Source: Eledone cirrhosa (Eukaryota). From it: a DNA stretch of 64,000 bases. Below are positions 1,205 through 63,931 of the stretch, piece by piece. The stretch is taken from positions 62,620,001-62,684,000 of the forward strand of contig OZ024741.1 of assembly GCA_964016885.1 (NCBI GenBank). The letters are read 5' to 3'. The notes under the pieces are model-generated. The model did no database searches, was not told the DNA's origin, and was given only the letters and a program-made list of their open reading frames with translations. Each line of letters opens with the position of its first letter. The stretch's first letter is position 1. The translations under genes and the position numbers were made by a program.

Positions 1205-2470
1205 ATTTCGTTTCTGAATTTGTTTAGCAATATTCTTTATCTGAAAACGTCTGTTGAAACCGATATTGTTATACTTTGGGAGGGTCATGTTGCCAATACG
1301 AAACATACGCACCAGCTGATTTCACTTCAGTTTATTATAAATTTCCAGTTGGTTGCTTGGTTCCACAACCGGATGGTTGTTAATATATTGTCAAAGTTCT
1401 TTCGTCACACATTCTGTGACCTCTTTAGTGACTGGGGATTATTTTCTTTGTTTTGTGCCCCTCCTTAGTTCTGTCATACGCCATCTTGTTTTTGTGTGTG
1501 TTGTGTTCTTAGTTTGCGCATGTGTTACATCCGGGTGTCTGTGTGCGTTTTTATTTGTTTATTTATTTATTTGTTTATTTACATGTTACTAGTTAGTTGT
1601 TTGTTCTATGTGTGTGTGTTTTCATTTTTTGTCCTTAATTGTAAGTTGTGATGTTACTATTCCATTCATGTTTTCTATTTAATTTCGGTTGGAGTTCATT
1701 TATGTTTATTGCCTCTGTGATTTGTCTAAACATTGCGTCTTTTCTGTGTCTAGATTTTTTTTTTTTTCTGTGTTCTCTAATTTGCCTTATGTTCTATTTT
1801 AGCATGTTGGTGGAGTACTGATAAGTCTTTTCAATCTTGGAGTTCTCGCCAGTGTTCATTTAATCGTTCTCCGATGCTACGAGCTGTCTCACCTATGTAC
1901 ATTATATTCTTATCTTTACATTGTCCCTCAGTACATCTTATGCTATATATTATGTTTCTAGTTTTACAGTTAATATGGGGCTTAGTTTACAGATTATGCA
2001 TTTCTTATCTATACAGGGAGGTCTTTGAAAAGGGTATGTATTACTAATAAGTGTTTTTATGGAGGTACCTGGTCTTTCCACTATCTTAATATTAAGTTTA
2101 AGTTTATCTAGGGCCTTCTAAATTTGTAAGGTAGTTCACCTCTCTCTAGGGGTTGTATTGATGAACATTATACTCTGATATTTATTGCTATCATACCATG
2201 AGTTTCTTTTATTAACCTAATTCCTAGGTCTTTCTATTCTATTCCAAAAGTTGCTCCTATACAAGGGGCAGGTCCCATTTGTATCATTATTTACCATTTT
2301 TTCCCATTTGGTTCTGGCTCCTCTATATACTCTGATTTTATCTCTCTGATTGTAACCAGAGAACTGCATACGGTGGATGAAGTGTCTCTCTAGTTCTTTG
2401 GGGTTGCACATGCGGAACACGTTCCTCATCACCCTTACTAAATCCGCAATCAGTATCTTGATTTTGGTGT
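1205..2470 (-). mobile_element. Penelope-like retroelement (Neptune-like) 3' fragment: RT C-terminus, Cys linker, GIY-YIG endonuclease, pLTR; decayed
   Basis: Manual minus-strand translation gives PFQRPPCIDKKCIICK / INCKTRNIIYSIRCTEGQCKDKNIMYIGETARSIGERLNEHW / DAMFRQITEAININELQPKLNRKHEW (GIY-YIG motifs) with frameshifts and stops. ORF 2217-2432 lies upstream. It is followed by a hammerhead-bearing terminal repeat ending in (TA)n. Confidence 0.9.
1390..1433 (-). ncRNA. Degenerate minimal hammerhead ribozyme in the PLE pLTR (family A)
   Basis: GUCA-CUAAAGA-G-GUCAC..GUGAC-GAAA-GAAC-UU-UGAC; G5>A relative to the intact paralog at 38193. Confidence 0.7.
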
Positions 2471-2572
2471 GATCCCGAGATTTAAACTCAGAACATAAAG
2501 GGACGCAACTCTATGCTGCGAAGCAGGGTGTCCGACGCTCTACCGACATACATATCTTAAGTAATGTGTGTA

Positions 2573-24641: not shown

Positions 24642-25065
24642 CAACCACTCAATCTAGCTGTCGTCTGTTCTACAGCGTAGAAGTAATTCACTTCGCGCAG
24701 AAGTTTTGTTCAAATTTATTGCGGAAATTTTGTAAGTTCAAATTTAATTTTGATACTATTGTGTAGCTTGACCCCCCCCCCCCCCCCCGTCTGAACTGTC
24801 AGGCGGTGGGTCAGCTCATCTTTACCCCTCCTAGGGGTGAAAAACCTGTTTTTAAAAATTTTGTGGCAAAAAAATTTCAATCGTCTGACAGAAATGTTAA
24901 ACGAAGCGAACGAAAATAGTAGTGGGGGGACAGCGGTAAGAGTTGTAAGCTCGCACGCTTTAGTCCCCCCTTCCTTCCCAACTAACGTCATAGAGAAGGA
25001 AGGAAAAAAATAAAATAAAAACAGACGAATCTGCGGAGAAAAATGACAAAAACACAAATCTGGAC

Positions 25066-26805
25066 ATGGATTCCAACAACGAAAAAAAAAAATTTGAAAA
25101 ATTGCATGACAATATTAATACCACAAACAAAGACACAACAAACACAAAAATAACATTTGAAAGCAACATCATAACAGAAAGCAAAGCAGACGACAAAGTC
25201 AACAACAACAAGATTTCATTTGCACAAACAAAGAAATCTCTGACATATATACCTGAAAATATTTCAGATGTTGCACAAAGAATCACAGACGCCAAACAAT
25301 ACATAAGTGAAGGAGAGAATGGTATTTTATCGGTAAAAATGCCTCAAGAACTCACCAAAGACATTGAAAGTCGAACGGTCGTGTTCCGCACCATCAACAA
25401 CATTTCTAAAAAACCTGAACAGCCAACTCAAACAGATATCAAAACAGTACTCACAGAAGTACTTAATGAAACCACTTTCATAAGAAAAGACAGACTGTAT
25501 GGAAGCCTAGCAATTATTATGAAGAACGAATCGGCGGCAAAAAAATGTGCTTTGTCACCGATTCGTTCGAAAATGTTTACCTTTTATCCATCTTATATGG
25601 GGAAAAGAACTCAACGCATATGGCTGGATGCAATGATGCCAGATGTGGACTACTGCTGGCTCATAGCTGGCTTCATAGATCCAGTGAATGACAACGTGAT
25701 TTCCATTGGGAAAACCACAGGCAATGCGTTCAGTGGAACAGGTATAGAGCTTGTAGTGCAAATGAAGCCTGAACGTATCGCCCAAATACCCGACAGAATC
25801 CTATTAGAGGGCCACGGGTATATAAACATTAGCGTGGAGGGGAGAAGGCCGTTCTGTCATATATGTGCAGGCAGAGAGCACCTGAAAGCCGCTTGTCCCC
25901 AACTCAACAAAAAGAAAACCCTGCTACCAACACCAGCTCCACCACCACCACCACCACAACAGATAAACAAACAACAAAACTCAGTCCCACCCAACCCGTC
26001 CCTCAGTAAAACTACACCACCACAACAACACAAACAGTCACAACACATTACCCCAAAACAAAATACAGGCCCACCCAACCCCTCACTCAATAAAACAACA
26101 CAACCACCGCAGCCACAACACACAACACAGTCTAACATAGTGACATCCATCTCCCCCACAAAGAAAACCAACACGGAAACATTACCAGCAAACATACCTC
26201 TTCCCTCCAACACTGAAGATAACCCAACGAATTCGGAGGAAGAAACGGAGTCCTTCAGACAGATTAAAAGAAAAAAAAGAAAACATGTGCAAAACACACA
26301 AGGCCAAACAACCCCCACCCAAATGTCAACACAATCCAACAAAACACAAAACACCCCTCCAGCAACAAACAAAACCAAACCTGCCCCTCCCCTCTTCGAA
26401 ACACTCACACCATCCGAAAAAAAGACATTACACTATACTTACATCAACAGAAACAATAATAAATTAAATGAACTCATAAACAATAATCCTTCGGTACAAA
26501 CCGAAGGTGTAAACTTTGTTTCTTCAGAAAACTACCCACATTTAAAATTAAAAAAGATCCCAATGAACCTCTACCAAAAACTAAAAAAGGATTTTAAGGA
26601 GGACGTAGGACCACCCTCTGTCAAACCCATAAACCGCGTCCTACTAAAAAGCTTTCCCCCTCCCCTTCCCCTCCCCAACACAACTCCAAACACCCCAACC
26701 CCACCATACACTGACGACTCCACACCACCACAAGACACCCCTTCACCCAACACCCCCGACCCCATGGAAGTCGTGCGAACCGAACCCCGGGAAGCAGAAA
26801 GGTAG
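25066..26805 (+). CDS. Tx1 LINE ORF1 (CCHC zinc knuckle, P/T/Q-rich tail)
   Basis: 579-aa ORF with CHICAGREHLKAAC; the true start may be the ATG near 24893 with an A-run frameshift. Confidence 0.85.
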   Translation: MDSNNEKKKFEKLHDNINTTNKDTTNTKITFESNIITESKADDKVNNNKISFAQTKKSLTYIPENISDVAQRITDAKQYISEGENGILSVKMPQELTKDIESRTVVFRTINNISKKPEQPTQTDIKTVLTEVLNETTFIRKDRLYGSLAIIMKNESAAKKCALSPIRSKMFTFYPSYMGKRTQRIWLDAMMPDVDYCWLIAGFIDPVNDNVISIGKTTGNAFSGTGIELVVQMKPERIAQIPDRILLEGHGYINISVEGRRPFCHICAGREHLKAACPQLNKKKTLLPTPAPPPPPPQQINKQQNSVPPNPSLSKTTPPQQHKQSQHITPKQNTGPPNPSLNKTTQPPQPQHTTQSNIVTSISPTKKTNTETLPANIPLPSNTEDNPTNSEEETESFRQIKRKKRKHVQNTQGQTTPTQMSTQSNKTQNTPPATNKTKPAPPLFETLTPSEKKTLHYTYINRNNNKLNELINNNPSVQTEGVNFVSSENYPHLKLKKIPMNLYQKLKKDFKEDVGPPSVKPINRVLLKSFPPPLPLPNTTPNTPTPPYTDDSTPPQDTPSPNTPDPMEVVRTEPREAER

Positions 26806-26838
26806 GTCACTACACTCTCCTTTGGCTCTGCCGCCCAC

Positions 26839-29800
26839 ATGGATGTGTTAAGAGTAGGATGTTTGAATGCACGTGGCCTGGGCTCAACTTGAAAGCAAGC
26901 AAAGCTTCTAAATGACCTCAGGTCATGTGGTATAAATGTAATGGTTATCTGTGAGACTCGGATCAGCGTCGTGCGGCAGCTGGCCCCTACCTTCGATGAC
27001 TTTGAGGTGCATGCATCTCTCTGTCAACCTGGAGGTGAGGGTGGGGTTGTCGTACTGCTGCAAAAACACCTGGGTCTTGCCGTACAGGTTGTTCACTCGG
27101 ACCCGGAGGGTCGTTTGTTGGTGCTAGACGTTGGCAGTAGTGAAGGTGCGGCCTTGAGACTGGTCGCCGTCTACTCCCCTTTCGGAGCGTAACGGCCCGA
27201 CTTCTTCCAGCGTTTGGAGACTTTTCTGGGAACGTCGCGTTCCCTGCTTCTAGCGGGGGATTGGAATGACATCCTAGATGCACGTTGGGACTATGCAGGA
27301 GCATGTCCTAATAGAGGGGGGGGGGGTGTAACAGCCTCAAGGGGTTACTCGACCGTTTTAACTTGGTCGATAGATATCGACTAGATTTTCCAACTGTGCC
27401 TACCTGGACTTGGAGAAACCACAGTGGTCAATCTAGATCGTACTTAGATAGATTCTTAGTTAGAAGTAAGGATAGGGACATATTAAGCTGTCCAGAAATG
27501 CGCACGGTTGGCTATACGGATCACAAATTAGTGACCTGCGTAGTCAATCTCGAGAAAACACATAAACAGGGTCCCGGTTACTGGAAACTTAATTTGTCTT
27601 TACCGGCAAAAGAGACTTACAGAAACCGGATTAGCAGATTAGTTAAGGAGAGGTTGACGGGTGCAATCGTCAACAACCGATGGTGGGCATCTCTCAAAAG
27701 AGAGATTAGAACAGAATCAATAAGTTATAGCAAGATGTTAGCTGCCGATAGGAATAGAAACGAGAAAGAATTAACAGGTAAATTAGAAGAGGCAATCAAG
27801 AGCGGAGATGTGGCCAGAGTGCTGGCATCGAGGACGGCCTTGAACCAGTTTTTCGATGCAAAGCACGAAGGCTGCGTCATTCGAAGTAAAATACGTGCTC
27901 TAGGTAATGAGAGGGCCAAAGCCGTTGGCTGGGCCCGCGTGACAGAAGCTAAGAGTGGAAATCGATCCACCATCCGGTCGTTGCAAGACGAGGATGGACG
28001 GGTGATCCGGGAGCCTAAGCAGATGTGCGAGGCCTTTCAAAGGCACTTTGCCCGATTATTCGGGGGAGGCGAGGGTCCGGGCGGGGACGTGGATTTCGGT
28101 CCATACCTCGACGGCCTGCCGCGTCTCTCGAGCGAAGAGGCAGAGTCCTGCGAGGGACCAATCTCGGCTGATGAGATCGGAGATGCGCTGAGCCAATGCA
28201 ACAGGCGCAAATCTCCAGGTCTCGATGGTATACCTTACGAACTTTATTTAGCAATGCGCCGGTCTTCTTCTCCGAACTCCTCGAAGCGGTCTACTGCAAT
28301 TGGCAGCAGAACGGGAGAATTCCTTGTTCTGTAGGGGTAGTCTCGCTGGTGAGGAAGGACGAGAACAAGGGGGATAGTATAAATAATTTTCGGCCCATAA
28401 CCCTGCTAAACACAGAGTTAAAGATTTTGGGCAAGGTGTTAGCAAAGGGGTTGGCGCTTGTCGTGGGTAGCCTGGTGGGAGATGCGCAGACATGTGCTAT
28501 CCCATCCAGGTCCATTCACAATAACCTCCACCTCATGCGATACATCATAGAGAGTGTTGGCAACAAACCCGGCTTCGGTGGGGCCCTGATCAACTTGGAT
28601 CAGTCTAAGGCCTTCGATAGGGTCGACCATGGTTACTGAGGAAGTTAGAGTTGTTGCAGGGTATCCCCCTGGAACCAGGATTGAGCAAAGCGGTGTCGGC
28701 CTACGCAGATGACGTAACAGTAATGGTATCGACCGACTCGGATATCGTGGCGATCGGTACCTTACTGGAGGATTACGAAAGGTAGTCAGGAGCGAAACTG
28801 AACCGGGAAAAATCCATCGGGCTGCAACTCGGAACGTGGAGAGGCAGACCGATGCCTCCCGACGGTGTCGCCGGACACTGGACGGAGGGCCCGGTAAAGT
28901 TGCTTGGGGTCTGGTTTGGACCGGACCTCCAGGTGGAAAAGAACTGGGACGAGGTTACGAACAAGCTGTTTGCACTAACCCAGAAATGGGCCAAATGTAA
29001 GCTGTCCCTAAAAGGCCGGGCGGAGGTGGCGAACATTTACATAGCGTCCGTCACTTACTACCGCCTGACTGTCGTGCCTTGCCCTAAGGAAACACTCACC
29101 ACCATTGAACGCATGCTCTTCCAATTTCTTTGGAAGAAGCGCCCTCCTATGGTGAGAAGATCCATCTGCTGCCAACAACCTTCGAAAGGAGGGCTGGGGA
29201 TGCCGTGGTTGATGATGCGTAGGCACGCATTAAGGCTACGGCACCTACAGGTATTCCTCACTGGTCAACCGGTGTGGGCTCCGTTCGTGAAACGAGCCTT
29301 TCCGAGACTCGTCTCGCTCACCGAGCTGCAGTCCTGGGTCAAGCAAAGATCCGGAAAACTGGGAGACTGGCACACTGAGTGTGCCCAGGCGCTCAAGGCT
29401 CTCTGGCAAGCGGGCCCGGCCATCGGTGGAGAATCCACCTCATCATTCTATAGAGGGCTGGTGGCTAGCAGGGGCGATGACACCCTTGGAGAGTCGCTGG
29501 ACATGGAAGAGGACGAACTGGCCAGCCTGTTCGGTAGGACTTTCGGCCCGGGACCAATAGACAACTTCCAGAAGTCACTAGCCTGGCAGTGCTACCGGGG
29601 GGCTCTACCCGTTCGAGAGAGGCTCTACAGACACGGGCGCCCGGGCAGGGATCCCTAAAAAAAGATTTGCCCTAGATGCGTGCGTCACGAAGAAACCGTT
29701 GCGCACGCATTGGTGCAATGTCCGGGCGTGGCTGATCTGTGGGGCTACGCCGAACGACTGCTGTCGCGGGTGGCGCCGATTCAATTGAGCGCCGAGTCCG

Positions 29801-30084
29801 TGATGACAATCAAACCGCCTCCTCTCTTCACAAAGGAAGCAAAGGCGGTTTTTCTGTGCGTAATAGCCATGTTGAAAGAGGTTGTTTGGTGGACACGATT
29901 GAAAGGTTTGATGTCAGGCAACTTCCTCTCTGGCCATAGTCTGGTCTACTTCTTCCGATATCACTTCGGAAGAAGGATGAGAATGGAGAGAGAGGTGCTT
30001 GGCCACAGGCAGTTTTATGAAAGGTGGGTGATAGTGGCGAGAATGGCTCGTGTAAATGGGCCTTCTCTGTATACCATCCTGTAG
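26839..30084 (+). pseudogene. Tx1 ORF2 (APE endonuclease, RT, CCHC), disrupted
   Basis: MDVLRVGCLNARGL, GDWN, SYLDR, TDHK, FRPITLLN, DQSKAFDRVDH, AYADD; about 7 lesions including stops at ~26890, 27190, 28783, 29656 and a deletion at ~28635 removing QGCPLS. Confidence 0.92.
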
Positions 30085-32343: not shown

Positions 32344-32374
<31 letters not shown>

Positions 32375-32381
<7 letters not shown>

Positions 32382-32760
32382 AGAAAAAAGAGAATCAGTG
32401 TTGCGACGAAAGGAATTTATTGGACATATTACAATTGTTTCTCATGCGACCAGCTCGAGGTACGATCGATGTGGTGATCAAACCTGACTCTGAAATCGCG
32501 CGGTCCTCGGATACGTCTCGATCCTACGAAGCAGATTTTCATATAGGAAAATCTGCTTCGTTTGATCAGGTTTGATCACCACATCTATCGTGCCTCGAGC
32601 TGATCGCCCGAGAAACAATTGTAATATGTCCAATAAATTCCTTTGTCGCAACACAGATTCTCTTTTTTCTGTGATATCATACTCTGCTCTACGAGGGCAT
32701 CGAGTACTCATACGGCTCACCGCATACGGATGCTTTAAGCATCCAACACCAATTATATAT
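32375..32760. mobile_element. Foldback element (family D) in (TA)n; second copy 60955-61210
   Basis: Arms 32375-32488 / 32565-32678 are reverse complements; inner hairpin cgaagcagattttc..gaaaatctgcttcg. Confidence 0.85.
32423..32517 (-). ncRNA. Hammerhead ribozyme family D, U4>C degenerate copy
   Basis: GACGUAU-CCGAGGA-long stem II-GAAAC-AAUU-GUA-AUAUGUC. Confidence 0.65.
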
Positions 32761-33281
32761 ATATTTATATATATATATTAGTATTGGTGCTCTGAAATAT
32801 CGATGTATACATGAATGTATGTATAGTATATTTGGCAATATACTGTATGTTTAATTAAAAACAATTAGAAGACCATTTGCTCTCAGTTTTAAAGAAGTGA
32901 CTACGTCACTTATTTTTGGCAACGGAGGGGAGAGTGGCTGCCAGTCTGTTTCTTGCTGAGAGAGAGGAGGGGGGAGAGAGATAGTAAACAATGAATTGAA
33001 TTTTAAAACAACCAGCCGAATGTAAAACATGACCAAGTTATGAAGTGTTGTGTAAGCTTCAGCGAACTAACCACCATGTCCGTAGTTAGATACGAAATTA
33101 CAGATTATTGTGAGGAGCCAGAGAATCTAATGAAATCAAGTGTCTTTGCAATGTAGATGTTATTAAATGCTTTTATAGTAAAATCTGTTTACATAGAGTT
33201 ATCTGAGCATAAATATAAATGAATATTTGGCGCTATATAAAATTGCATAGAACGTTAATATATGGTTAAAAGTGTTCCATG

Positions 33282-33352
33282 TATTTTATTATGCGCATTT
33301 CAAAAACAAATATCATCATGGGATGATATTTGCGTTCTCATCAGATAAAATA
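33282..33352 (-). ncRNA. Type I hammerhead ribozyme (family B), intact
   Basis: Exact reverse complement of 33445-33515. Confidence 0.88.
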
Positions 33353-33444
33353 GGGAGACATGGTATGAATATGTTGATTTAACATATGTTGATTTAACAC
33401 TTCACTGCTCGCAGGTGTTCTTTAAGGTTCATATCATGCCTCCC

Positions 33445-33515
33445 TATTTTATCTGATGAGAACGCAAATATCATCCCATGATGATATTTGTTTTTGAAAT
33501 GCGCATAATAAAATA
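33445..33515 (+). ncRNA. Type I hammerhead ribozyme (family B), intact
   Basis: Stem I UAUUUUAU/AUAAAAUA; CUGAUGA 33453-33459; 16-bp stem II with one mismatch; GAAA 33496-33499; palindromic stem III AUGCGCAU; AUA cleavage predicted after 33507. Confidence 0.9.
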
Positions 33516-33891
33516 CATGGAACTCTTTTAACCATCTTTTGATTTTATATTATTTATACTCCAATCCTATAAACTGTTGAGTGCTACTTATCCGATATTT
33601 GCATTGCTTTATTGTGCTACAATAAAACTCGCCTCCTACATATATATATATATGTATATATATATAAAAAGGAACGATCGACTTTTTTGTCAAATCGGAC
33701 CGAGGGAACAATGTTTCCGTTGGTCTTTCCAATTGCTAATACTATCTATCCGTCGCAACTCCAGGTAGAAGGAGCAACGTGAAATAAAGTGTCTTGTTCA
33801 AAGACATAACGCATCGCCTGGTCCAGGAATCGAACTCACAGCCTTACGATTGCGAATACAATCCTCTAACCACTCAGCCACACGCCTTCAC

Positions 33892-37594: not shown

Positions 37595-37930
37595 CATACA
37601 GGCACACATATATATATGTACGTATCAGTTTAGCGAACATTTAATATAATGTTCGCTTTGTTCGTTTGTAAACAAACTGACAGCCTGATTTATGCCGTAC
37701 GGTGTTAAGGCAACCACGTCACCATTTCTTTTTTGTTTTTTTTTTGTTCAACACTGACACAGGAACGATGTACTAGTTTCAAGCTTGTTAGCTATCGTCA
37801 GCACCGTATACCCTTCTGCCAGATGGTTGAACGTTCGAAAGTATATACTTTCCTTATGAAAATTAACGGCTGAGCAGTAAGTGCCGAACTAAGAGTGAGA
37901 AATGAAATTTCGTTTCATTCTATTCCATTT
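37468..37930 (-). mobile_element. Diverged monomer of the family C hammerhead element (see 54959)
   Basis: Colinear similarity to 55020-55410 (gaacattta.tataatg, gtttgtaaacaaac, ttgttcaacactgaca.aggaacg). Confidence 0.8.
37765..37807 (-). ncRNA. Minimal type I hammerhead (family C), intact
   Basis: ACGGUG-CUGACGA-U-AGCU-AACA-AGCU-U-GAAAC-UA-GUA-CAUCGU. Confidence 0.82.
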
Positions 37931-37951
37931 ATATATATATATATATATATA

Positions 37952-38452
37952 TATTGTTATACTTTGGGAGGGTCATGTTGCCAATAAGAAACACACGCAC
38001 CAGTTGCTTTCACTTCAATTTAATTTATTATATATTTATAAATTTACAAATTTATAAATTTCTGGTTGGTTGGTTGGTTCCACAACCAGATAGTTGTTTA
38101 TATATATATAGTCATAGTTCTTTCGTCACACACAAACAAAATGGCGTAGGATAGAAGAAAGGAAAGGCACAGAAACGAAGAAAGAAATCCCCAGTCACTG
38201 AAGAGGTCACAGAGTGTGTGACGAAAGAACTATGACTATATATATATATAAACAACTATCTGGTTGTGGAACCAACCAACCAACCAGAAATTTATAAATT
38301 TGTAAATTTATAAATATATAATAAATTAAATTGAAGTGTAAGCAACTGGTGCGTGTGTTTCTTATTGGCAACATGACCCTCCCAAAGTATAACAATATCG
38401 GTTTCAACACACGATTTCAGATAAAGAATCTTGCTAAACAAATTCAGAAACG

Positions 38453-38877: not shown

Positions 38878-40422
38878 TTAGCTGTAGTGTTGGCGGATCT
38901 CGGGAAGCATGGAGGCCTTAAAGGATGCAGTGTCTCGACAGCTAACAACTGATGCAGGTAGTTTGTTCCATGCTTCAGCAACTCTGAGCGTGAAAAAATG
39001 TTTCCGAAAGTCACAGGAACTGTGCTGTTTTCTTACTTTGTGGGCATGTCCACGTGTGTTAGACACATGGAAATCAAAAAGGTACTCAGGGTTGTTGTTG
39101 GCAACATGGTTAACAATTTTGTGGGTGTTTACCAAGTCAGTTGCCAGGCGTCGGAGCTTCAATGAATCCATGCCCAGGGAAGCAAGGCGCTCAGAGTATG
39201 GTAGATGCCTGATGGAGGGTATTCGCTTGGTTGCACGTCTCTGAACAGTTTCCAGGCGGTCAATGTCCTGAGCAAGATAGGGGTTCCAGACTGGTGATGC
39301 AATTTCTAAGTGTGGTCGCACCATAGCTGTATACAGCCTTAAATAGATATCTGGAGAGCGGCTGACAAAGGTCTTGCTGAGTGATGCTAAGACACCCTCG
39401 GCCCTCTTGACAATTTTAGAGACGTGCCTCGTCCAACGCAAATCGCTGCTGACCGTAATGCCCAGGTCACGTTCACAGGAAGACTTCTTGATATTAGTGC
39501 TGTGGAGGGAGTATGTGGACGCTGGGTTTTTACTCCCAAAATGCATGGTGGTGCACTTGTCCACAGCTAGCTTGAGTTGCCAGTCTGAGATCCATTGTTG
39601 CATTGTGTCCAGGTCAGACTGCAAGCAAGATCTATAGTGTTCAGGATCTGTCCTTTTTATCTCAAGGTACAGCTTGATGTCGTCTGCGTACTTTAGTACT
39701 GTGGCATTCCTTAAGTTGGCATCTATGTCATTAATATATGCCACAAACAAAAGGGGGCCAAGAACAGATCCCTGTGGTACACCAGATGACATCTCATATG
39801 GTGAGGAATGCTGTCCCAGAACCGTGACTACCTCTCTTCGACTGAGAATGAAGGACTTCAACCAGTTAAAAAGATCATCCCTCACACCCATTGCAGAGAG
39901 TTTTGCCATAAGCTTTTTGTGTGGCGCAGAATTGAAGGCCTTCGCAAAGTCAAGGTAAACAACATCCACCCATGAGCCGCCATCAGTGATCCGGGTGATG
40001 TCCTCAAGAAACTCTATAAGTTGATCACAGCAGCTGGAGTTGGGGATAAATCCAAATTGCGAGGGCCGGATAAGACTGTGAGAGATCCAGAAGTTCCAAA
40101 GTGTTTCTCTGACACAGGATTCCATCAGTTTGTCAATGCAACTAGTAAGACTGACTGGACGATAGTTCACAGGTGATGTGCGGTCACCCTTTTTGAACAG
40201 AGGAATGACACTGGCAGTTTTCCACTGTTCTGGAGTAGCACTGTTGTTCAGACAGAATTGGAAGAAGCGTGATAACTGGTGTAGAAAGAAGTACCCACCA
40301 CGTTTAAGAAGCAGGTACGTAACACCATCAAGACCAGGAGAGGCATGGTTGCATTTATTTTTTAGGTGACGTGGCAGCAATGCAGGTGTAAATTCCATGG
40401 TTGTAATAGAGTCCGGTGTCAT
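38878..40422 (-). CDS. CR1 ORF2 reverse transcriptase portion
   Basis: 514 aa with NYRPVSLTS, YLDFAKAF, GVPQGSVLGPLLF, KYADD, RDLG, RGH..K..RKHFF..RV...WN.LP. Confidence 0.92.
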   Translation of the reverse strand: MTPDSITTMEFTPALLPRHLKNKCNHASPGLDGVTYLLLKRGGYFFLHQLSRFFQFCLNNSATPEQWKTASVIPLFKKGDRTSPVNYRPVSLTSCIDKLMESCVRETLWNFWISHSLIRPSQFGFIPNSSCCDQLIEFLEDITRITDGGSWVDVVYLDFAKAFNSAPHKKLMAKLSAMGVRDDLFNWLKSFILSRREVVTVLGQHSSPYEMSSGVPQGSVLGPLLFVAYINDIDANLRNATVLKYADDIKLYLEIKRTDPEHYRSCLQSDLDTMQQWISDWQLKLAVDKCTTMHFGSKNPASTYSLHSTNIKKSSCERDLGITVSSDLRWTRHVSKIVKRAEGVLASLSKTFVSRSPDIYLRLYTAMVRPHLEIASPVWNPYLAQDIDRLETVQRRATKRIPSIRHLPYSERLASLGMDSLKLRRLATDLVNTHKIVNHVANNNPEYLFDFHVSNTRGHAHKVRKQHSSCDFRKHFFTLRVAEAWNKLPASVVSCRDTASFKASMLPEIRQHYS

Positions 40423-40473
40423 AGGTGGTGGAGATGGTACACTCTGGTCTTCAATAGTGAAAATGCCTGCATA

Positions 40474-41660
40474 TCATTCAGCAATGAGCTCTGCGCATTC
40501 CTTGGGGTCGTCAGTAACCTGGCTTGTGTGGGGATTGCTAAGAGGACCAACTGGAGAGTAAGGCCTCTGCTTTGAGTGAACATACTTCCAGAACACCTTA
40601 CTGTCAGGGCTGGTTGCTATGCGCTGCTCAAATTGAAGCACTGCCTTTTTTGTCACCTGTTTGAGGTGGTTGGACGATCTATTTCGCCTCTTCCTATTAA
40701 TGTCTGATTTGTGAAGTTTGTACTCACGTTCAGCATTGCGCCGTTCTTTTCTGGCAAGACGGACTGCTGCAGTCTCCCAAATAGCGCTTTTGGGATGTTT
40801 TTCCCGCTTACGTGGCACCGATGCTGCACATGCTGTCCATATTGAGCTCAGGATGTTCTGGAGTACAGTGTTGACATCTCCAGAGTCGTAGAACTCAAAC
40901 CAGTTTGGCCGTTGCAACTCGGTGCAGTAACAGTTCCAGTCTACTTTATTCCAGTCAAAATGAGCAGTTTGGAGATAGTTGTGGTTCTTTTTACTGCCCA
41001 TGAGGGATAGATTGGCAATGATCATAGCATGATCAGAGTCACCTAAAGGTTCCTCAGCAGTAACACTAATGACCGTTGCAGGAATAGTGGTGAAGAGTAG
41101 GTTCAAAGTGTTGTCACCTCTCGTTGGTGAGGTGACCACCTGGAACCAACTCGAGTCCAGCACCAGCTCAAGGAAGTCATTTGCAATTGGCGGCCAACGA
41201 AAGGTCTCCCAGTCAATCTCAGGGTGATTGAAGTCACCTGCAATGAAAACATAAGTGCCTGTCTTCCTGGCAGCAGCTCTGAGGATATCACAAAGTTGAG
41301 TGTCCTGATGGTCATTTGGGGGACGGTAAACGACTCCAAGTAGCAGTGTTGACATGGTCATACGTATATCGCAGAAAAAAACTTCCTGCTGTGATTGGTT
41401 CAAATCAGCACAAGGAATTGCCGACAGATTTGACTGAACGTAGACCATTACACCACCACCACGACGATTAATGCGGTCTTTACGAAACAGGTTGTAGCCA
41501 GTCATGCTGAAAACCCATCACAGAGTAAGGGATGTGCCCAAGTTTCCGTGACTGTAATGAAGTCCGGGTTGATACTTTTGACGTAGGAGTCAAAAAGATG
41601 AATCTTATTGCATAGACTACGTGCATTCAAGGACCGCAACTTGTACTTTGATTCCAGTCT
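40474..41660 (-). pseudogene. CR1 ORF2 APE endonuclease portion (frameshifted at ~41515 and ~40470)
   Basis: LNARSL, TVTETW, RKDRINRRGGGV, VYRPP, GDFNHP, PTRGDNTLNL, SDHAMI. Confidence 0.9.
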
Positions 41661-48382: not shown

Positions 48383-49259
48383 TGTAGCGATATCTGTCCA
48401 CGCCTTGAACCTTGGGTGACATCTAAGGGTCAAACTTTAGGTCACCACCCTTTTGGTGTGAACAGGTTCATCCTCTCAAGGTGGGAGACAGAAAGCGACA
48501 GGTATATAAAGCCTATATTTTCCCACCTTGCATACAGAGAGATCGGAGCACCACGATACAGACAAGCTATGTGAAAGATTCACCGCTATCTTCAGGCCGC
48601 AGAGCTCAATAGACATACAGAGCGATCAGAGCAGTATGCTATTACAAGCTATGTGAAAGATTCACCGCTACCTTCAGGCCGCAGAGCTCTACAGACATAC
48701 AGAGCGATCAGAGCAGTATGCTATTACAAGCTATGTGAAAGATTCACCGCTATCTTCAGGCCGCAGAAGTGTACAGACATACAGAGCGATCAGAGCAGTA
48801 TGCTATTACAAGCTATGTGAAAGATTCACCGCTACCTTCAGGCCGCAGAGCTCTACAGACATACAGAGCGATCAGAGCAGTATGCTATTACAAGCTATGT
48901 GAAAGATTCACCGCTATCTTCAGGCAGCAGAGGTGTACAGACATACAGAGCGATCAGAGCAGTATGCTATTACAAGCTATGTGAAAGATTCACCGCTATC
49001 TTCAGGCCGCAGAGCTCTACAGACATACAGAGCGATCAGAGCAGTACGCTATTACAAGCTATGTGAAAGATTCACCGCTTCCTTCAGGCCGCAGAGGTGT
49101 ACAGACTATTACTCTCTCAGACTACGCCAGCCTCATGAACCAACAACAAAAATAACATTGTCAACCTTCGCAACTCGTGGTTATATGTTTATTGTTCTTT
49201 TTGATTGAAGTGAAGTAAACCTTTATATATAAAATATATCGGCCATTCTTGTTATTTCA
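48383..49259 (+). mobile_element. Probable solo LTR containing a tandem array
   Basis: Starts TGTA after (TA)n; TATA-like tatataaa 48503-48510; 3' end uncertain and abutting a SINE. Confidence 0.45.
48563..49106 (+). repeat. 82-bp tandem repeat, about 6.6 copies
   Basis: caagctatgtgaaagattcaccgct recurs at 48563, 48645, 48727, 48809, 48891, 48973, 49055. Confidence 0.97.
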
Positions 49260-52800: not shown

Positions 52801-54696
52801 TCGAAAGCTTTCGATAGGGTCGACCATCGTTACCTAGCGGCAGTCCTGAGGGCGGCTGGCTTTGGGCCCGTCTTCAGAGGCTGGATCGCTGCCATGCACA
52901 GCGACATCTGCTCTGTAGTGAGAGTGAACGGTCACCTTTCGGAACCGTTCGACATCATGCGCTCGGTCCGCCAAGGATGTCCCCTCTCGTCCCTATTGTA
53001 CGTATTGACTCTCGAGCCATTACTGCACAAACTGGAGACGTTGAGGGGGGTCCCGCGCGAACTAGGATGCGGAAGATCCGTGTCAGCATATGCCGACGAT
53101 GTCACCGTAATGGTGTCGAACGCCAAACACATCGAGGCGATCGGCACTACACTAAGATAATACGAAGCGGTGACAGGAGCAATGATCAACCAGGAAAAGT
53201 CAGTGGGCCTGCAGCTCGGCACCTGGAGAGGCAGGTCCATGCCGTCCAACAGCGTCGTCGGGCGCTGGACGGACGGACCGGTTAAATTGCTAGGAGTCTG
53301 GTTCGGTCCAGACCTCCAGACGGACAAAAACTGGGACGAGGTGACGAGCAGGGTGGCTTCTCTCACCCAGAAATGGGCCGAGAGGAAGCTATCCCTGAAA
53401 GGTCGAGCGGAGGTGGCGAATGCGTACATCGCGTCCGTCATCTACTACCGCCTGACCGTCGGACCTTGTCCTAAGCCCCGCCTGACTGCGCTGGAGAGTT
53501 TGCTCTTTCGCTTCTTGTGGAAGGGACGCGCTCCGATGGTCAGGCGGTCCATCTGCTGTCAACACCCGCTACGTGGAGGGCTGGGCATGCCGTGGCTGAT
53601 GATGCGCAGACACGCGCTCAGGCTACGACATCTCCACCTCTTCCTCGACGGTGATCAGGTGTGGTCGCCGTTTGCTAGACACGTTTTTCCCCAGCTCGTC
53701 TCCTTGACGGAGCTGCAGTCCTGGGTCAAGCGAAGACCGAGAGGGAGCGCTTGGAGACTGGAATGTCTTCAGGCGCTCACAGCCCTCGACCAATCGGGCA
53801 ATGTGATCGGTGGAAACTCCACCTTGGCGTTCTATAGGGGATTAGTGGAGGGGAAGAGCGACGACGTACTTGGAGAAACTCTAGGCGTCGACGAAAATCA
53901 ACTAGCCAATCTCTTTGGAAGGACTTTCGGGCCGGGGCCTATGGACAACTTCCAGAAATCCCTGGCCTGGCAGTGCTACCGAGGAGCTTTGCCAGTTCGG
54001 GATAAACTCTACAGGCATGGAGGTGCCGTCAGCCGGGCATGTCCGAGATGCGCGCAGGGCGACGAAACCGTCCTGCACGCACTCGTCCAGTGTCCGAGCA
54101 TTGATGACTTGTGGGTTTATGTCGAACACCTGCTGTCACGTGTAGGACGGATTCTATCAGCTGAGTCCATCGTGAGGATTGCCCCGCCGCCTTCCTTTAG
54201 CCGGGAAGGGCAGGCAGTTTTTATCTGTTTGGTGGCCATGGCGAAAGAGATAGTATGGTGGACACGTTTGAAAGGGCTAAAGACGAGCACTTACCTCTTA
54301 GGTGATGCCCTGATTAACTTTTTCAAATTTCATTTGAAAAGGAAAATCAGGGTAGAGAGGGAAGTGCTCTCTTCCCAGCATTTTGTTGAATGATGGGTGA
54401 GAGAAGCAAGTATGGCCCGAATGAATGGGCCTTCTCTGAGTATGTGTCTGTAAATTAAAGGTGGAAAACTGGGAGAGGGCACTTGCCCTGGTGGTCAGGG
54501 CCACTGTGGTCTTTTAATGGGCTTTCTCCACAAATGTCCCTCGGAAGTCTCCCCCCTATTGGGGAATTTTTCTTTGTTATTTTATTTCATCCTCTGTTTT
54601 TTTTACACGCAGAAATGCTCATTTGTACCGTCCGGTTTTGTCCTGTACTGTCCTTAATGTCTACTTCATGTAAACCCTTGTGGTTAACAAAGAAAA

Positions 54697-54961: not shown

Positions 54962-55225
54962 AACGGAAAAAATGAAACGAAATTTCATTTCCCACTCCTA
55001 GTACGGCTGTTACTTATATATAAGTATGTACACGTACATACATATATGTATACAGACGCACAGTAGTATGTGTATATATATACATACATGCACACATATA
55101 TATATGTACGTATGGATTCACCGAACATTTATTATAATGCTCGGTGTGTTTGTAAACAAACATCCCGTATTAAGCCGTAGTGTCTAGCAACCATCGTTGC
55201 TCGTTTGTTCAACACTGACAAAGGA

Positions 55226-55268
55226 ACGCTATACTAGTTTCAAGCTTATTAGCTATCGTAAGCAACGT
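55226..55268 (-). ncRNA. Family C hammerhead, G5>U degenerate copy
   Basis: Core reads CUUACGA. Confidence 0.6.
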
Positions 55269-55688
55269 AGACCTTCCTGCCAGATTGTTGAACGTATATA
55301 CTTACCTTATGTATATTAACGGCTAAGTAGCCCAATTTGCATATCGAGTGGGTTAATCGGCCGGGTGCACCGAAAACGATAAACGGAAAAAATGAAACGA
55401 AATTTCATTCCCCACTCCTAATACGGCTGTTACTTAAATATAAGTATGTACACGTACATACATATATGTATACAGGCGCACAGTAGTATGTATATATATA
55501 TAAATGTACATACTTATATTTAAGTAACAGCCGTACTAGGAGTGGGAAATAAAATTTCGTTTCATTTTTTCCGTTTATCGTTTTCGGTGCACCCGGCCAA
55601 TTAACCCACTCGATATGCAAATTGGGCTACTCAGACTTTAATATGCATAAGATAAGTATATACGTTCAACAATCTGGCAGGAAGGTAT

Positions 55689-55731
55689 ACGTTGCTGACG
55701 ATAGCTAATAAGCTTGAAACTAGTACAGCGT
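55689..55731 (+). ncRNA. Minimal type I hammerhead (family C), intact
   Basis: ACGUUG-CUGACGA-U-AGCU-AAUA-AGCU-U-GAAAC-UA-GUA-CAGCGU; cleavage predicted after 55725. Confidence 0.82.
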
Positions 55732-55934
55732 TCCTTTGTCAGTGTTGAACAAACGAGCAACGATGGTTGCTAGACACTACGGCTTAATATGGGATGTTTG
55801 TTTACAAACACACGGAGCATTATAATAAATGTTCGGTGAATCCATACGTACATATATATATATGTGTGCATGTATGTATATATATATACATACTACTGTG
55901 CGTCTGTATACATATATGTATGTACGTATACATA

Positions 55935-61084: not shown

Positions 61085-61179
61085 GACATATTACAATCGT
61101 TTCTCTGGCGACCAGCTCGAGGAACGATCGATGCAATGATCAAACCTGACTCTGAAATCGCAAGATCCTCAGATATGTC
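61085..61179 (-). ncRNA. Type I hammerhead (family D) with 62-nt stem II region, intact core
   Basis: GACAUAU-CUGAGGA-UCUUGCGA...UCGCCAGA-GAAAC-GAUU-GUA-AUAUGUC. Confidence 0.8.
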
Positions 61180-61311: not shown

Positions 61312-62391
61312 ATATATATACACGTACGTATGTATGTTTGTGTGTATGTATGAATGCATTTGTATGGATATACTTGCTTGTGTTTATGTTTGTGTCTGTC
61401 TGTAATTATGTCATGAAACCCAGTGGTTTGACAAAAATGAAATTGATAAGATAAACCATACTTGGAGAAAATGTATACTGGTTCGGTATAATTGACTAAA
61501 CCTAGGAGTTACTCCAGCATGCCAGAGACTACGACTGAAATTAATGATAGAATAAAAGATCTTTACAAATGAATGCCTTTCACAAAGTTTCTGCAACCAA
61601 ATATGAACTTGTAGCTTCATTTTCGAGATACAAAAGAGATACAGTTGTATATTAGTTCTTCTCGAAGCATATTCACTCGAAATGTTATCAGCTGAGAAAG
61701 TCTGAACTTTTTCAATTAGCAGTTAGTGATTTATTCTGTTTAGAAAATGAATTACAATCGTAAATCTGAAATGAGAGCGATGTCCGGTGTTTATCTTTAC
61801 TGTTAATGTTTCTGTTATTGTCCAGGCCACATAACTATAGAACAGATCTATATATATATGAAAGCGTTGAAAAATATGACTTTAATTTCATCACTAACTC
61901 TATACAAATAACTAACTAACTCTATACCAAATAAATTAATTTTCACTTTACTACACATGCTAATATAACAAAAATATTCTACATTAAAACGTTGAGCTTC
62001 TGGAACAATGCTCAGGTCAGCATCAAACTTTTCTTCGGTTTTATTTGGCTATTGATTTTTAAACCTTCATTTGCATGTCAAGTTTCAAAACTTCTCAGTT
62101 ATCTTCGAAGTGCCAAGGCGTTATCACATAACATTGTAGGATCATCAACAAAGGCTAATATAAGAGGTTTTGAAACAGAACTTTGTTAGACTATATATAT
62201 ATATGTGTTTGTGTCTATATTGTATCTGTATTTTTTGACCGTTGGTCAGTCAATAGTAACATTGAGGACCGAATAAATTAAATTAACCGATATAAAAGAC
62301 ACAGAAGCGAAAACCAACCAAACAGTGAGTGTGTTCTGTTATTAATTCTGGTAATATTATTACACAAATATGACCCTCCCCAAGTATAACA

Positions 62392-62422
<31 letters not shown>

Positions 62423-62476
62423 TAAAAAAATAATGAATAAAACAATGAAACAGTTCCTTATATTAAACAAAAAAAG

Positions 62477-62629
62477 TTCATTATTTAACGATCGTTTCTA
62501 CGACATATATGTGTTAGAATTGGCATGCATATTCAACAGATCTATGTACAAAATTATACAAAATTATACAAACTATCAAATTTAATATACATACCAACAC
62601 ATATATATGCCGTCTTCAGAAATAATGAA
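62477..62629 (-). ncRNA. Type I hammerhead (family F) with very long stem-loop II
   Basis: UUCAUUAUUU-CUGAAGA-CGGCAUAUAUAUGUGUUGG-76 nt-CUAACACAUAUAUGUCG-UA-GAAAC-GAUC-GUU-AAAUAAUGAA. Confidence 0.78.
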
Positions 62630-63424
62630 ATATATTTATTGATAATAACAACAATTCAAAATTACAGGTCTGTTTGGGAACAGAGTTCAAATTGACCAAT
62701 GAAATACACAAAAAATATATCTAGAAAATACAGTTAGGTGTGTGTATATATGTAAGTAACTTCGTTCACAGATATGCATAAAAATATATGTTCACATGCA
62801 TACGCATGTCGAAAAAATGTATGTAAATACAAAAATTCAGGGCTAATGTCTCTGTATGTTTATAATCTACAGATAAAATACATACACGTATATAAACATA
62901 TATACATTCATATATACACACATAAACATACATTCACACACACACGCGCATATACGCATAAACATACACATAACCACGAACATACACACACACACACACC
63001 CACCCACACACACACACATATATGTGTATATATTATTATCATAAGCATATGGACATTAAGGCGCGCACATAAGCACTGCCACATATATTTAGATCCAGAT
63101 ACAGAAAGTAGATGGGGGGGGGGGTCAGTATTTACGGGTGTCAGACAAACTGCCTATTTAAAAATGTATCTATAAATTTAGAAATAAAAAGAAGAATATT
63201 AAAAAAATATATATATATATAAAAAAACAAGTAAAATATAAAATACACATCGATATATATATATATATATATACATATATACATACACATATATATATAT
63301 ATATACAACTATATATACATATATATATATACACACATATACATAGAGACACATACATATACACATATAAATACATAGACACATATACATACACACATAT
63401 ATATACACATACATAATTCACAAG

Positions 63425-63644: not shown

Positions 63645-63710
63645 TATTTCATTATATATATTTCAGGGATATCATATTAACAATATGCTATGCCTTCCTC
63701 AGACAAAATA
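63645..63710 (-). ncRNA. Type I hammerhead (family G), intact
   Basis: UAUUUUGU-CUGAGGA-AGG..CAUAUU-GUU-AAUAUG..CCU-GAAA-UAUAUA-UA-AUGAAAUA. Confidence 0.8.
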
Positions 63711-63865
63711 CAATATAAACAGTTTTATAGATAAATAGATTCGACATACCGTAACAACATCGACTTGTATTTGAAAAAGTTGAATTGCCAATTCAACTTT
63801 TTCAAATACAAGTCGATGTTGTTACGGTATGTCGAATCTATTTATCTATAAAACTGTTTATATTG

Positions 63866-63931
63866 TATTTTGTCTGAGGAAGGCATAGCATATTGTTAAT
63901 ATGATATCCCTGGAATATATATAATGAAATA
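63866..63931 (+). ncRNA. Family G hammerhead mirror copy, A13>G
   Basis: Same fold, but GGAA at 63912-63915. Confidence 0.6.

Follow-up and report, generated by a model that had tools for sequence, protein, structure and literature searches.

A stretch of 64,000 nucleotides of Eledone cirrhosa DNA (the window, in what follows) contains, on the minus strand from 62629 to 62477, a type I hammerhead motif in which the two halves of the core are separated by a domain II of 114 nt; the question raised by this locus is to what kind of element such a motif belongs, and whether and how it could cleave. The feature is very probably the hammerhead of a Penelope-like element (PLE), an identity that is well supported; the whole account proposed below, namely that of a type I hammerhead with a palindromic stem III, located near the 3′ end of a PLE, carrying a stem II rod of 43 pairs and cleaving weakly and only as a dimer, is put forward tentatively, at slightly under an even chance, and all its kinetic steps are inferred.

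All the features named in the first-pass annotation were found again, on a strand that it had left unstated and that turns out to be the minus strand. Stem I, claimed to be perfect, is indeed composed of ten Watson-Crick pairs flanking the core (62629-62620 with 62486-62477), and the word CUGAAGA (C3-A9; 62619-62613), an instance of CUGANGA, follows straight after its 5′ strand. Domain II (62612-62499) ends with the two extra bases, UA, that had been noticed ahead of GAAA; they lie at 62500-62499, immediately 5′ of G12, and together with G12 (62498) read UAG. The other half of the core, GAAAC-GAUC-GUU (62498-62487), comprises G12-A13-A14, a stem III of two pairs (among them A15.1-U16.1) closed by a GAUC loop, and U17, that is, an H and not a G; the cut is predicted between 62487 and 62486. 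The departure from the type I scheme concerns the junction, as stem II does not close directly on G12, where the usual pair is G10.1-C11.1: in the window copy the base of stem II is a C-G pair, followed by UA before GAAA. On account of this junction the motif is called here a variant working like a PLE hammerhead, and not a proven ribozyme.

A chance assembly of such motifs, in a region that is both AT-rich and microsatellite-rich, is a negligible probability, and was ruled out on three grounds: the whole motif folds at -44.8 kcal/mol (z -5.45), a stability equalled by 0 of 200 shuffles; a loose type I descriptor has eight matches in the window, compared to a mean of 0.11 in 150 block shuffles; and a repeat family shares the same core. 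In particular, stem III is palindromic in six of the eight window matches, while the 150 block-shuffled windows yielded no match with either a palindromic stem III or a stem I of ten Watson-Crick pairs. The hammerhead motif is real.

That standard descriptors would miss it had been foreseen correctly. At gathering scores Rfam matches neither this motif nor the seven others of the window, and no hammerhead family appears among the 150 of 234 Rfam E-value matches listed, which are microsatellite hairpins. The published PLE descriptor (PMC4209133, supplement; here and below, what is said of published systems refers to the available excerpts of the papers cited) admits a stem II of 3-7 pairs, a loop of 3-10 nt and at most one extra base before GAAA, and is too narrow for a 114-nt domain followed by two extra bases. 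The size of domain II is 14, 14, 18, 31, 36, 36, 62 and 114 nt in the eight window motifs, the long ones being predicted to fold as hairpins; it thus exceeds 30 nt in five of eight motifs, none of which is found by Rfam. The other type I motifs belong to five other families (33282-33515, 63645-63710(-), 61085-61179(-), 55689-55731(+), 37765-37807(-), 38193-38237(+), and a core at 32510(-)); the closing pair of stem II varies among them (G.U, A-U, U-A, U.U, G-C), and MAFFT gave no useful alignment of six window motifs from different families. Inverted-repeat structures of a kind typical of PLE insertions surround hammerhead motifs at 33262-33535, 63687-63889, 55073-55884, 38062-38287 and 32370-32752, the core at 63874(+) being the inverted partner of that at 63702(-). 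An 82-bp tandem repeat (48480-49217) contains four CUGAAGA words with no matching GAAA half. Exact-pattern scans of metagenome contigs, viral contigs and prokaryote genomes found nothing.

As for the element that carries the motif, contigs of four of 17 public runs were aligned to 62411-62800 at 80% likeness (ten further holders and three raw-read runs were left out; no RNA run is among the 17, which says nothing about whether the family is expressed), and the paralogs were seen as difference tables, in which letters and indels are tabulated when they reach at least 5%, the lack of a row being no proof of identity. The run X1 gave 1,570 contigs, 1,196 of them at a likeness of at least 95%; its summed depth, which is no copy number, reaches 8.7e5 near the 3′ end, single low-depth contigs standing at 10-34. 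The family is read as young and as made up of thousands of copies or more. The window copy of this high-copy repeat, read as a Penelope-like 3′ end, occupies 62414-62800 on the minus strand, the cover extending to the edge of the aligned region at 62800; no second copy of the family occurs in the 64-kb window. In X1 the cover stops at 62414 with loose ends, at a (TA)n tract (62392-62415) that marks the end of the element and is its likely insertion target, while depth peaks over the 3′ tail and the ribozyme and declines to about 1e5 at 62658-62696 and about 3e4 at 62723-62787; a fixed 3′ end, 5′ truncation and a microsatellite target are the marks of a dispersed repeat. An inverted junction is seen in one contig each of X4 and X6, where the loose letters at 62624-62626 read as the minus-strand core; at the window locus no inverted 5′-truncated copy stands beside the repeat. 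Inverted 5′-truncated copies and (TA)n targeting are both PLE traits (PMC8557442). The runs X4, X6 and X7 carry other organism labels and yet contain the same family, at depths thousands of times lower than X1 (in X7 a single contig covers 62414-62625, with 4 substitutions and 2 insertions); these sequences may be traces of the same animal's DNA and were not counted as independent species.

The short palindromic stem III expected of PLE hammerheads is also present: 62496-62487 is a perfect 10-nt palindrome, which contributes only two pairs to the stem III of a monomer and is predicted to form with a second copy a duplex of -11.8 kcal/mol. Beside the window copy no remnant of a reverse transcriptase or of an endonuclease was recognised, and the link of this family to PLEs is therefore one of architecture only. 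Elsewhere in the window, a GIY-YIG remnant (1834-1956, minus strand; PF01541, 24.6 bits with a cut-off of 22.6) has, about 400 nt downstream, a decayed paralog of the 38193 motif (near 1385-1435), and motifs of this sort are thereby connected with PLEs in the present genome. Remnant and decayed hammerhead are parts of a 5′-truncated, broken Penelope-like element (about 1207-2560, minus strand), with a C-x4-C-x2-C linker upstream of the GIY-YIG remnant that is Neptune-like by the description in PMC8557442. The 3′ end of the PLE family bearing the 38193 motif recurs at 1268-1291, 37956-37979 and 38370-38398, and at 62316-62395 (plus strand) it abuts, from the opposite side, the same (TA)n tract. 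For the rest, the window consists of animal DNA rich in microsatellites and includes LINE remnants (38881-41517(-), 53161-54390(+), 24994-30084(+)) in which reverse transcriptase (PF00078), endonuclease (PF14529 and PF03372) and zf-RVT (PF13966) domains are recognised; two frames, one of 603 aa at 24994 and one of 339 aa at 27315, have no Pfam match. It also contains eleven copies of a SINE-like repeat (4626, 11307, 11534, 12880, 17460, 31226, 49314, 57999, 59030, 59245, 59435), which we take to be typical of octopus genomes.

The same lack of a coding remnant beside the window copy would suit a hammerhead-bearing SINE or non-LTR retrozyme instead of a PLE end, the more so since animal retrozymes bear type I hammerheads (PMC7229834); this reading is nevertheless very improbable, because the window contains no tandem copy, let alone the tandem units of a retrozyme, the family thins towards its 5′ end and shows inverted junctions, the loop-loop motif is not recognisable, and animal retrozymes have themselves been proposed as derivatives of PLE repeats (bioRxiv 10.64898/2026.07.22.740005). 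On the PLE reading, preferred here, the cleavage triplet is nothing unusual: GUU had been taken as a weaker triplet, a judgement that is not supported, since U17 is present in 20 of 44 rows of the PLE alignment, including all three mollusc rows, and is ordinary for PLE hammerheads; GUU as a sign of decay was rejected on the same count of published PLE rows.

The paralogs keep the core. Neither CUGAAGA nor the first four bases of domain II, UA or GAAAC-GAUC-GUU has another letter or an indel tabulated at 5% or above; within stem I the outermost base, 62629, alone is listed (6%), and three X1 contigs have a loose end at 62471, running into the 3′ strand of stem I. The family is young, 1,196 of its 1,570 X1 contigs having a likeness of at least 95%, and the constancy of the core is therefore no evidence of selection. 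The idea that UA is a private decay of the window copy was rejected, as no indel is listed for the family. The window copy is the deviant one at other positions: 62501 differs from the family in all depth and in all four runs, 62504 in 82-100% and 62583 in 77-100% of depth, and 62596 in 60% of depth in X1. The paralog comparison that the first-pass annotation had proposed is in this way answered in part, as the core is kept and the apex of domain II, as described next, is shorter and different in a subfamily.

The annotation had drawn domain II as a 17-bp stem II with a 76-nt loop. Such a stem can be drawn (10 pairs, a 2-nt bulge, 7 pairs), whereas an open loop is not supported, its bases being mostly predicted as paired: in the minimum-energy fold the domain is a rod of 43 pairs (28 A-U, 9 G-C and 6 G.U), with the duplicated acaaaattat that had been pointed out, a tandem duplication of 10 nt, located at its apex (62548-62567, plus strand). 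In 14 X1 contigs a loose end before 62584 reveals the subfamily with the different, shorter apex. The fold has a z of -5.60 on the minus strand and of -2.63 on the plus strand, and the arm mismatches are six G.U and one A.C (weak, p about 0.06); the excess of G.U over A.C may be a weak hint of selection on the RNA. Paired by hand, the family letters at 62504 and 62583 add pairs to the rod, that at 62583 giving a U.G pair, and the private change at 62501 shifts the base of stem II in the window copy; the family letters then read CUGAAGA, an unpaired C, G10.1-C11.1, G-C, a bulged C, 15 consecutive pairs, UA and GAAA. An alternative in-register pairing of the same letters (C.A, G.U, G-C, C.C, then the same 15 pairs) requires no insertion. 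The first 17 nt of domain II (62612-62596) are predicted to fold alone into an unpaired C, a 6-pair stem and a 4-nt loop (-1.8 kcal/mol), which in this model is the shape of a compact PLE stem II.

Stem I is exposed to a competitor. A second exact copy of its 5′ strand lies downstream (62428-62437, minus strand), and is the predicted competing partner of the 3′ strand, which it would capture with a pairing probability of 0.94, a value as high being reached in 5 of 200 shuffles. With 50-250 nt of flank the predicted pairing probability of stem I is 0; its mean falls from 0.35, before the downstream partner exists, to 0 as the transcript lengthens by about 45 nt. In a second family, too, the 3′ strand of stem I has a strong competing partner just downstream (33220-33289(-), with 6 of 200 shuffles as high; 62428-62486(-) is the stretch that gives the 5 of 200 above), and a downstream partner has little or no such effect in the other six motifs tested, where 11-195 of 200 shuffles score as high. 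The competing partner, the Penelope-like context, the palindromic stem III and the splice-like signals discussed below had all been overlooked at first reading.

How could such an RNA work? PLE hammerheads with a palindromic stem III are described as cleaving weakly, as dimers (PMC4209133; PMC6765202), and the loop I/loop II tertiary contact of canonical hammerheads is absent from PLE minimal forms. According to the account preferred here, the element would be transcribed from the minus strand, and two RNA copies would pair through the 10-nt palindrome into a long stem III. The long stem II would stack on the core and point away from it, so that its length would be tolerated; a rod of more than 15 pairs presumably cannot bring its loop to where canonical 4-pair stems have it, and a loop I/loop II contact would not be possible, as in other minimal PLE hammerheads. 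The PLE consensus is CUGANGAH-G...C-GAAAN-palindrome-NUH (PMC4209133), and the junction of the family can be regarded as this consensus (one unpaired base, then G10.1-C11.1) with UA added, the UA probably slowing cleavage further. In the part of the literature consulted, base-of-stem-II mismatches can be tolerated and a natural hammerhead is impaired by a 2-nt core insertion at another position (PMC3088659), while a stem II extension may lower the rate (review, PMC3138052). Once transcribed, the downstream partner would take the 3′ strand of stem I, and cutting would thereby be confined to a short co-transcriptional window. New copies would arise from uncut RNA, because the end of the element lies about 70 nt beyond the cut site, with the PLE enzyme supplied in trans; in vitro, insertion proceeds without need of cleavage and the main template is uncut RNA (PMC11167929). 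Counted for the PLE reading are the motif nulls, the family, its 3′ end, its 5′ thinning, the inverted junctions and the energy of the palindrome duplex, together with the signs of a rod at the RNA level (strand bias of the fold, G.U versus A.C, pair-adding family letters); against the account stand the 2-nt extra before GAAA, outside the published PLE descriptor, and the predicted outcompetition of stem I in the presence of flanks.

These last two points can be turned into a different explanation, according to which rod and UA entered the master copy by a fold-back duplication that put an end to cleavage. The ribozyme would then be dead, and hairpins of this kind may do no more than signal to the PLE protein where to bind or prime; as PLE insertion has no need of the cut, the family would have multiplied anyway. 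A non-canonical junction for which no variant is listed, and a stem I predicted to be outcompeted in its context, agree with such a history, as do the published reports that core mutants insert normally in vitro (PMC11167929), that whole PLE clades without canonical hammerheads are still high-copy (PMC8557442) and that PLEs commonly show palindromic inverted junctions (PMC3846280). On the other hand, a dead ribozyme would hardly be expected to retain intact all the core bases, a perfect palindrome and a perfect 10-pair stem I; G10.1-C11.1 is moreover intact in the family letters, and intact cores also occur in other window families with domains of 31-62 nt. The loss of cleavage is on balance unlikely, although it deserves serious weight.

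A further possibility, which we consider rather improbable, is that the hammerhead is split by an intron, the 97 nt from 62594 to 62498 being a spliceosomal intron retained within domain II. G62595 would be joined to A62497, so that an upstream G stands in for G12 and UA is lost, and what remains after splicing would be a PLE hammerhead of compact form, with one unpaired C and a 6-pair stem closed by a 4-nt loop; the unspliced RNA would cleave poorly and serve as template, and the spliced RNA would cleave. Under the same improbable scheme, the rod would hide donor and branch point, and splicing would rebuild the GAAA core and switch self-cleavage on. The candidate signals are a donor G/GUAUGU (62595-62589), a branch-point-like UUCUAAC (62519-62513) that is also the pairing partner of the 5′ arm, and an acceptor UAG (62500-62498) formed by UA and G12, for which no other letter or indel is listed in the family; donor and branch point were picked post hoc, by general splice consensus patterns and with criteria chosen after viewing the sequence, which itself weakens the case. 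With this proviso, the combination of donor, branch point, YAG at G12 and an exon-side stem of at least 5 pairs occurs in none of 40,000 dinucleotide shuffles, where the three splice signals by themselves reach 0.04%, and among the 24,308 window segments that precede a G, three have the splice signals and one, the segment in question, has all four features. The exon-side 17 nt fold alone into the compact shape, the 3′ strand of their stem equals that of the Lottia (1) row of the published alignment (PMC4209133), the fixed UA would be explained, and PLEs keep spliceosomal introns, that of D. virilis ending at helix I (PMC4209133; PMC8557442). The objections to an intron are several: the branch-like motif complements the 5′ arm and is thus tied to the hairpin; the donor, like the branch point, is predicted to lie buried within the rod; the pyrimidine tract is weak; an upstream acceptor that looks equally good (62721-62722) is altered in 89% of X1 depth, and hence such signals arise here by chance; the commonest family letter at 62596 would produce a G.A mismatch in the first pair of the spliced stem; the 3′ arm is complementary to bases on the exon side, as befits a rod with a role in the unspliced RNA; and four other window motifs tested, with a domain II of 31-62 nt, are without these signals. 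The A found at the -2 base of the donor in 60% of X1 depth was tried as favouring splicing over a hairpin and rejected, as it fits both. No spliced DNA copy (the joint) and no pile-up of molecule ends is listed among the contigs, which cannot show absence.

Each of these readings has its own consequences. Should the long form cleave, PLE hammerheads can accommodate a domain II five times as long as those in published alignments, and genome counts based on short descriptors overlook entire high-copy families. A dead motif would be a further sign that PLE hammerheads are dispensable for spreading. Were the 97 nt an intron, the family would connect the retained introns of PLEs with their weak ribozymes, two traits so far unexplained, and the motif would be a natural splicing-gated ribozyme, giving a function to the retention of introns in PLEs.

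Among known systems with a large insertion between the core halves, as here, is reportedly the discontinuous CLEC2 hammerhead of rodents, which is said to differ in being type III, with the insertion in stem I, and in residing in a host 3′ UTR and not in a high-copy retroelement. The closest likeness is with the PLE hammerheads of Cervera and De la Pena (2014; PMC4209133), which share the type I topology, the CUGANGAH-G start of stem II, the palindromic stem III, a common U17, U-rich 5′ and AU-rich 3′ flanks, the occurrence as dispersed single copies and inverted pairs and the position at the element end; nevertheless, domain II measures 114 nt here compared to at most 23 nt in the 44 published rows seen, stem I has ten pairs and not 2-6, and two extra bases precede GAAA where those rows have none or one (PMC4209133). 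Penelope of D. virilis also has a short palindromic stem III, and there splicing of the pLTR intron changes the hammerhead, an event hypothetical here; its intron extends as far as the 5′ edge of helix I, whereas the present candidate lies inside domain II and ends on G12 (PMC4209133). Anolis Poseidon (PAc) resembles our family in the hammerhead at the repeat end, the 3′ end beyond the cut and a tail stem-loop, and differs in a reading frame that begins in stem II, whereas here no frame that opens in domain II continues through the core, and in its demonstrated cleavage in vitro (PMC11167929). In the 'HHR_half_core' of Naiad the halves of a PLE core are likewise far apart, by 35-50 nt; here they stand 114 nt apart, and each of the three stems can be drawn (PMC8557442). 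Animal non-LTR retrozymes share with our repeat the type I hammerhead and a high-copy, non-coding nature, dimer cleavage being described for them, and one axolotl retrozyme family tolerates a U.U mismatch at the base of helix II; they are tandem units of 220-390 bp with mostly canonical short helices, unlike the solitary copy with a giant stem II found here (PMC7229834). The literature searched describes neither such a motif nor an intron within stem II, though Lunse 2017 and Arkhipova 2017 may contain longer stems. With respect to the known PLE hammerheads, what is new is a domain II roughly five times as long as the longest published one, together with a fixed UA.
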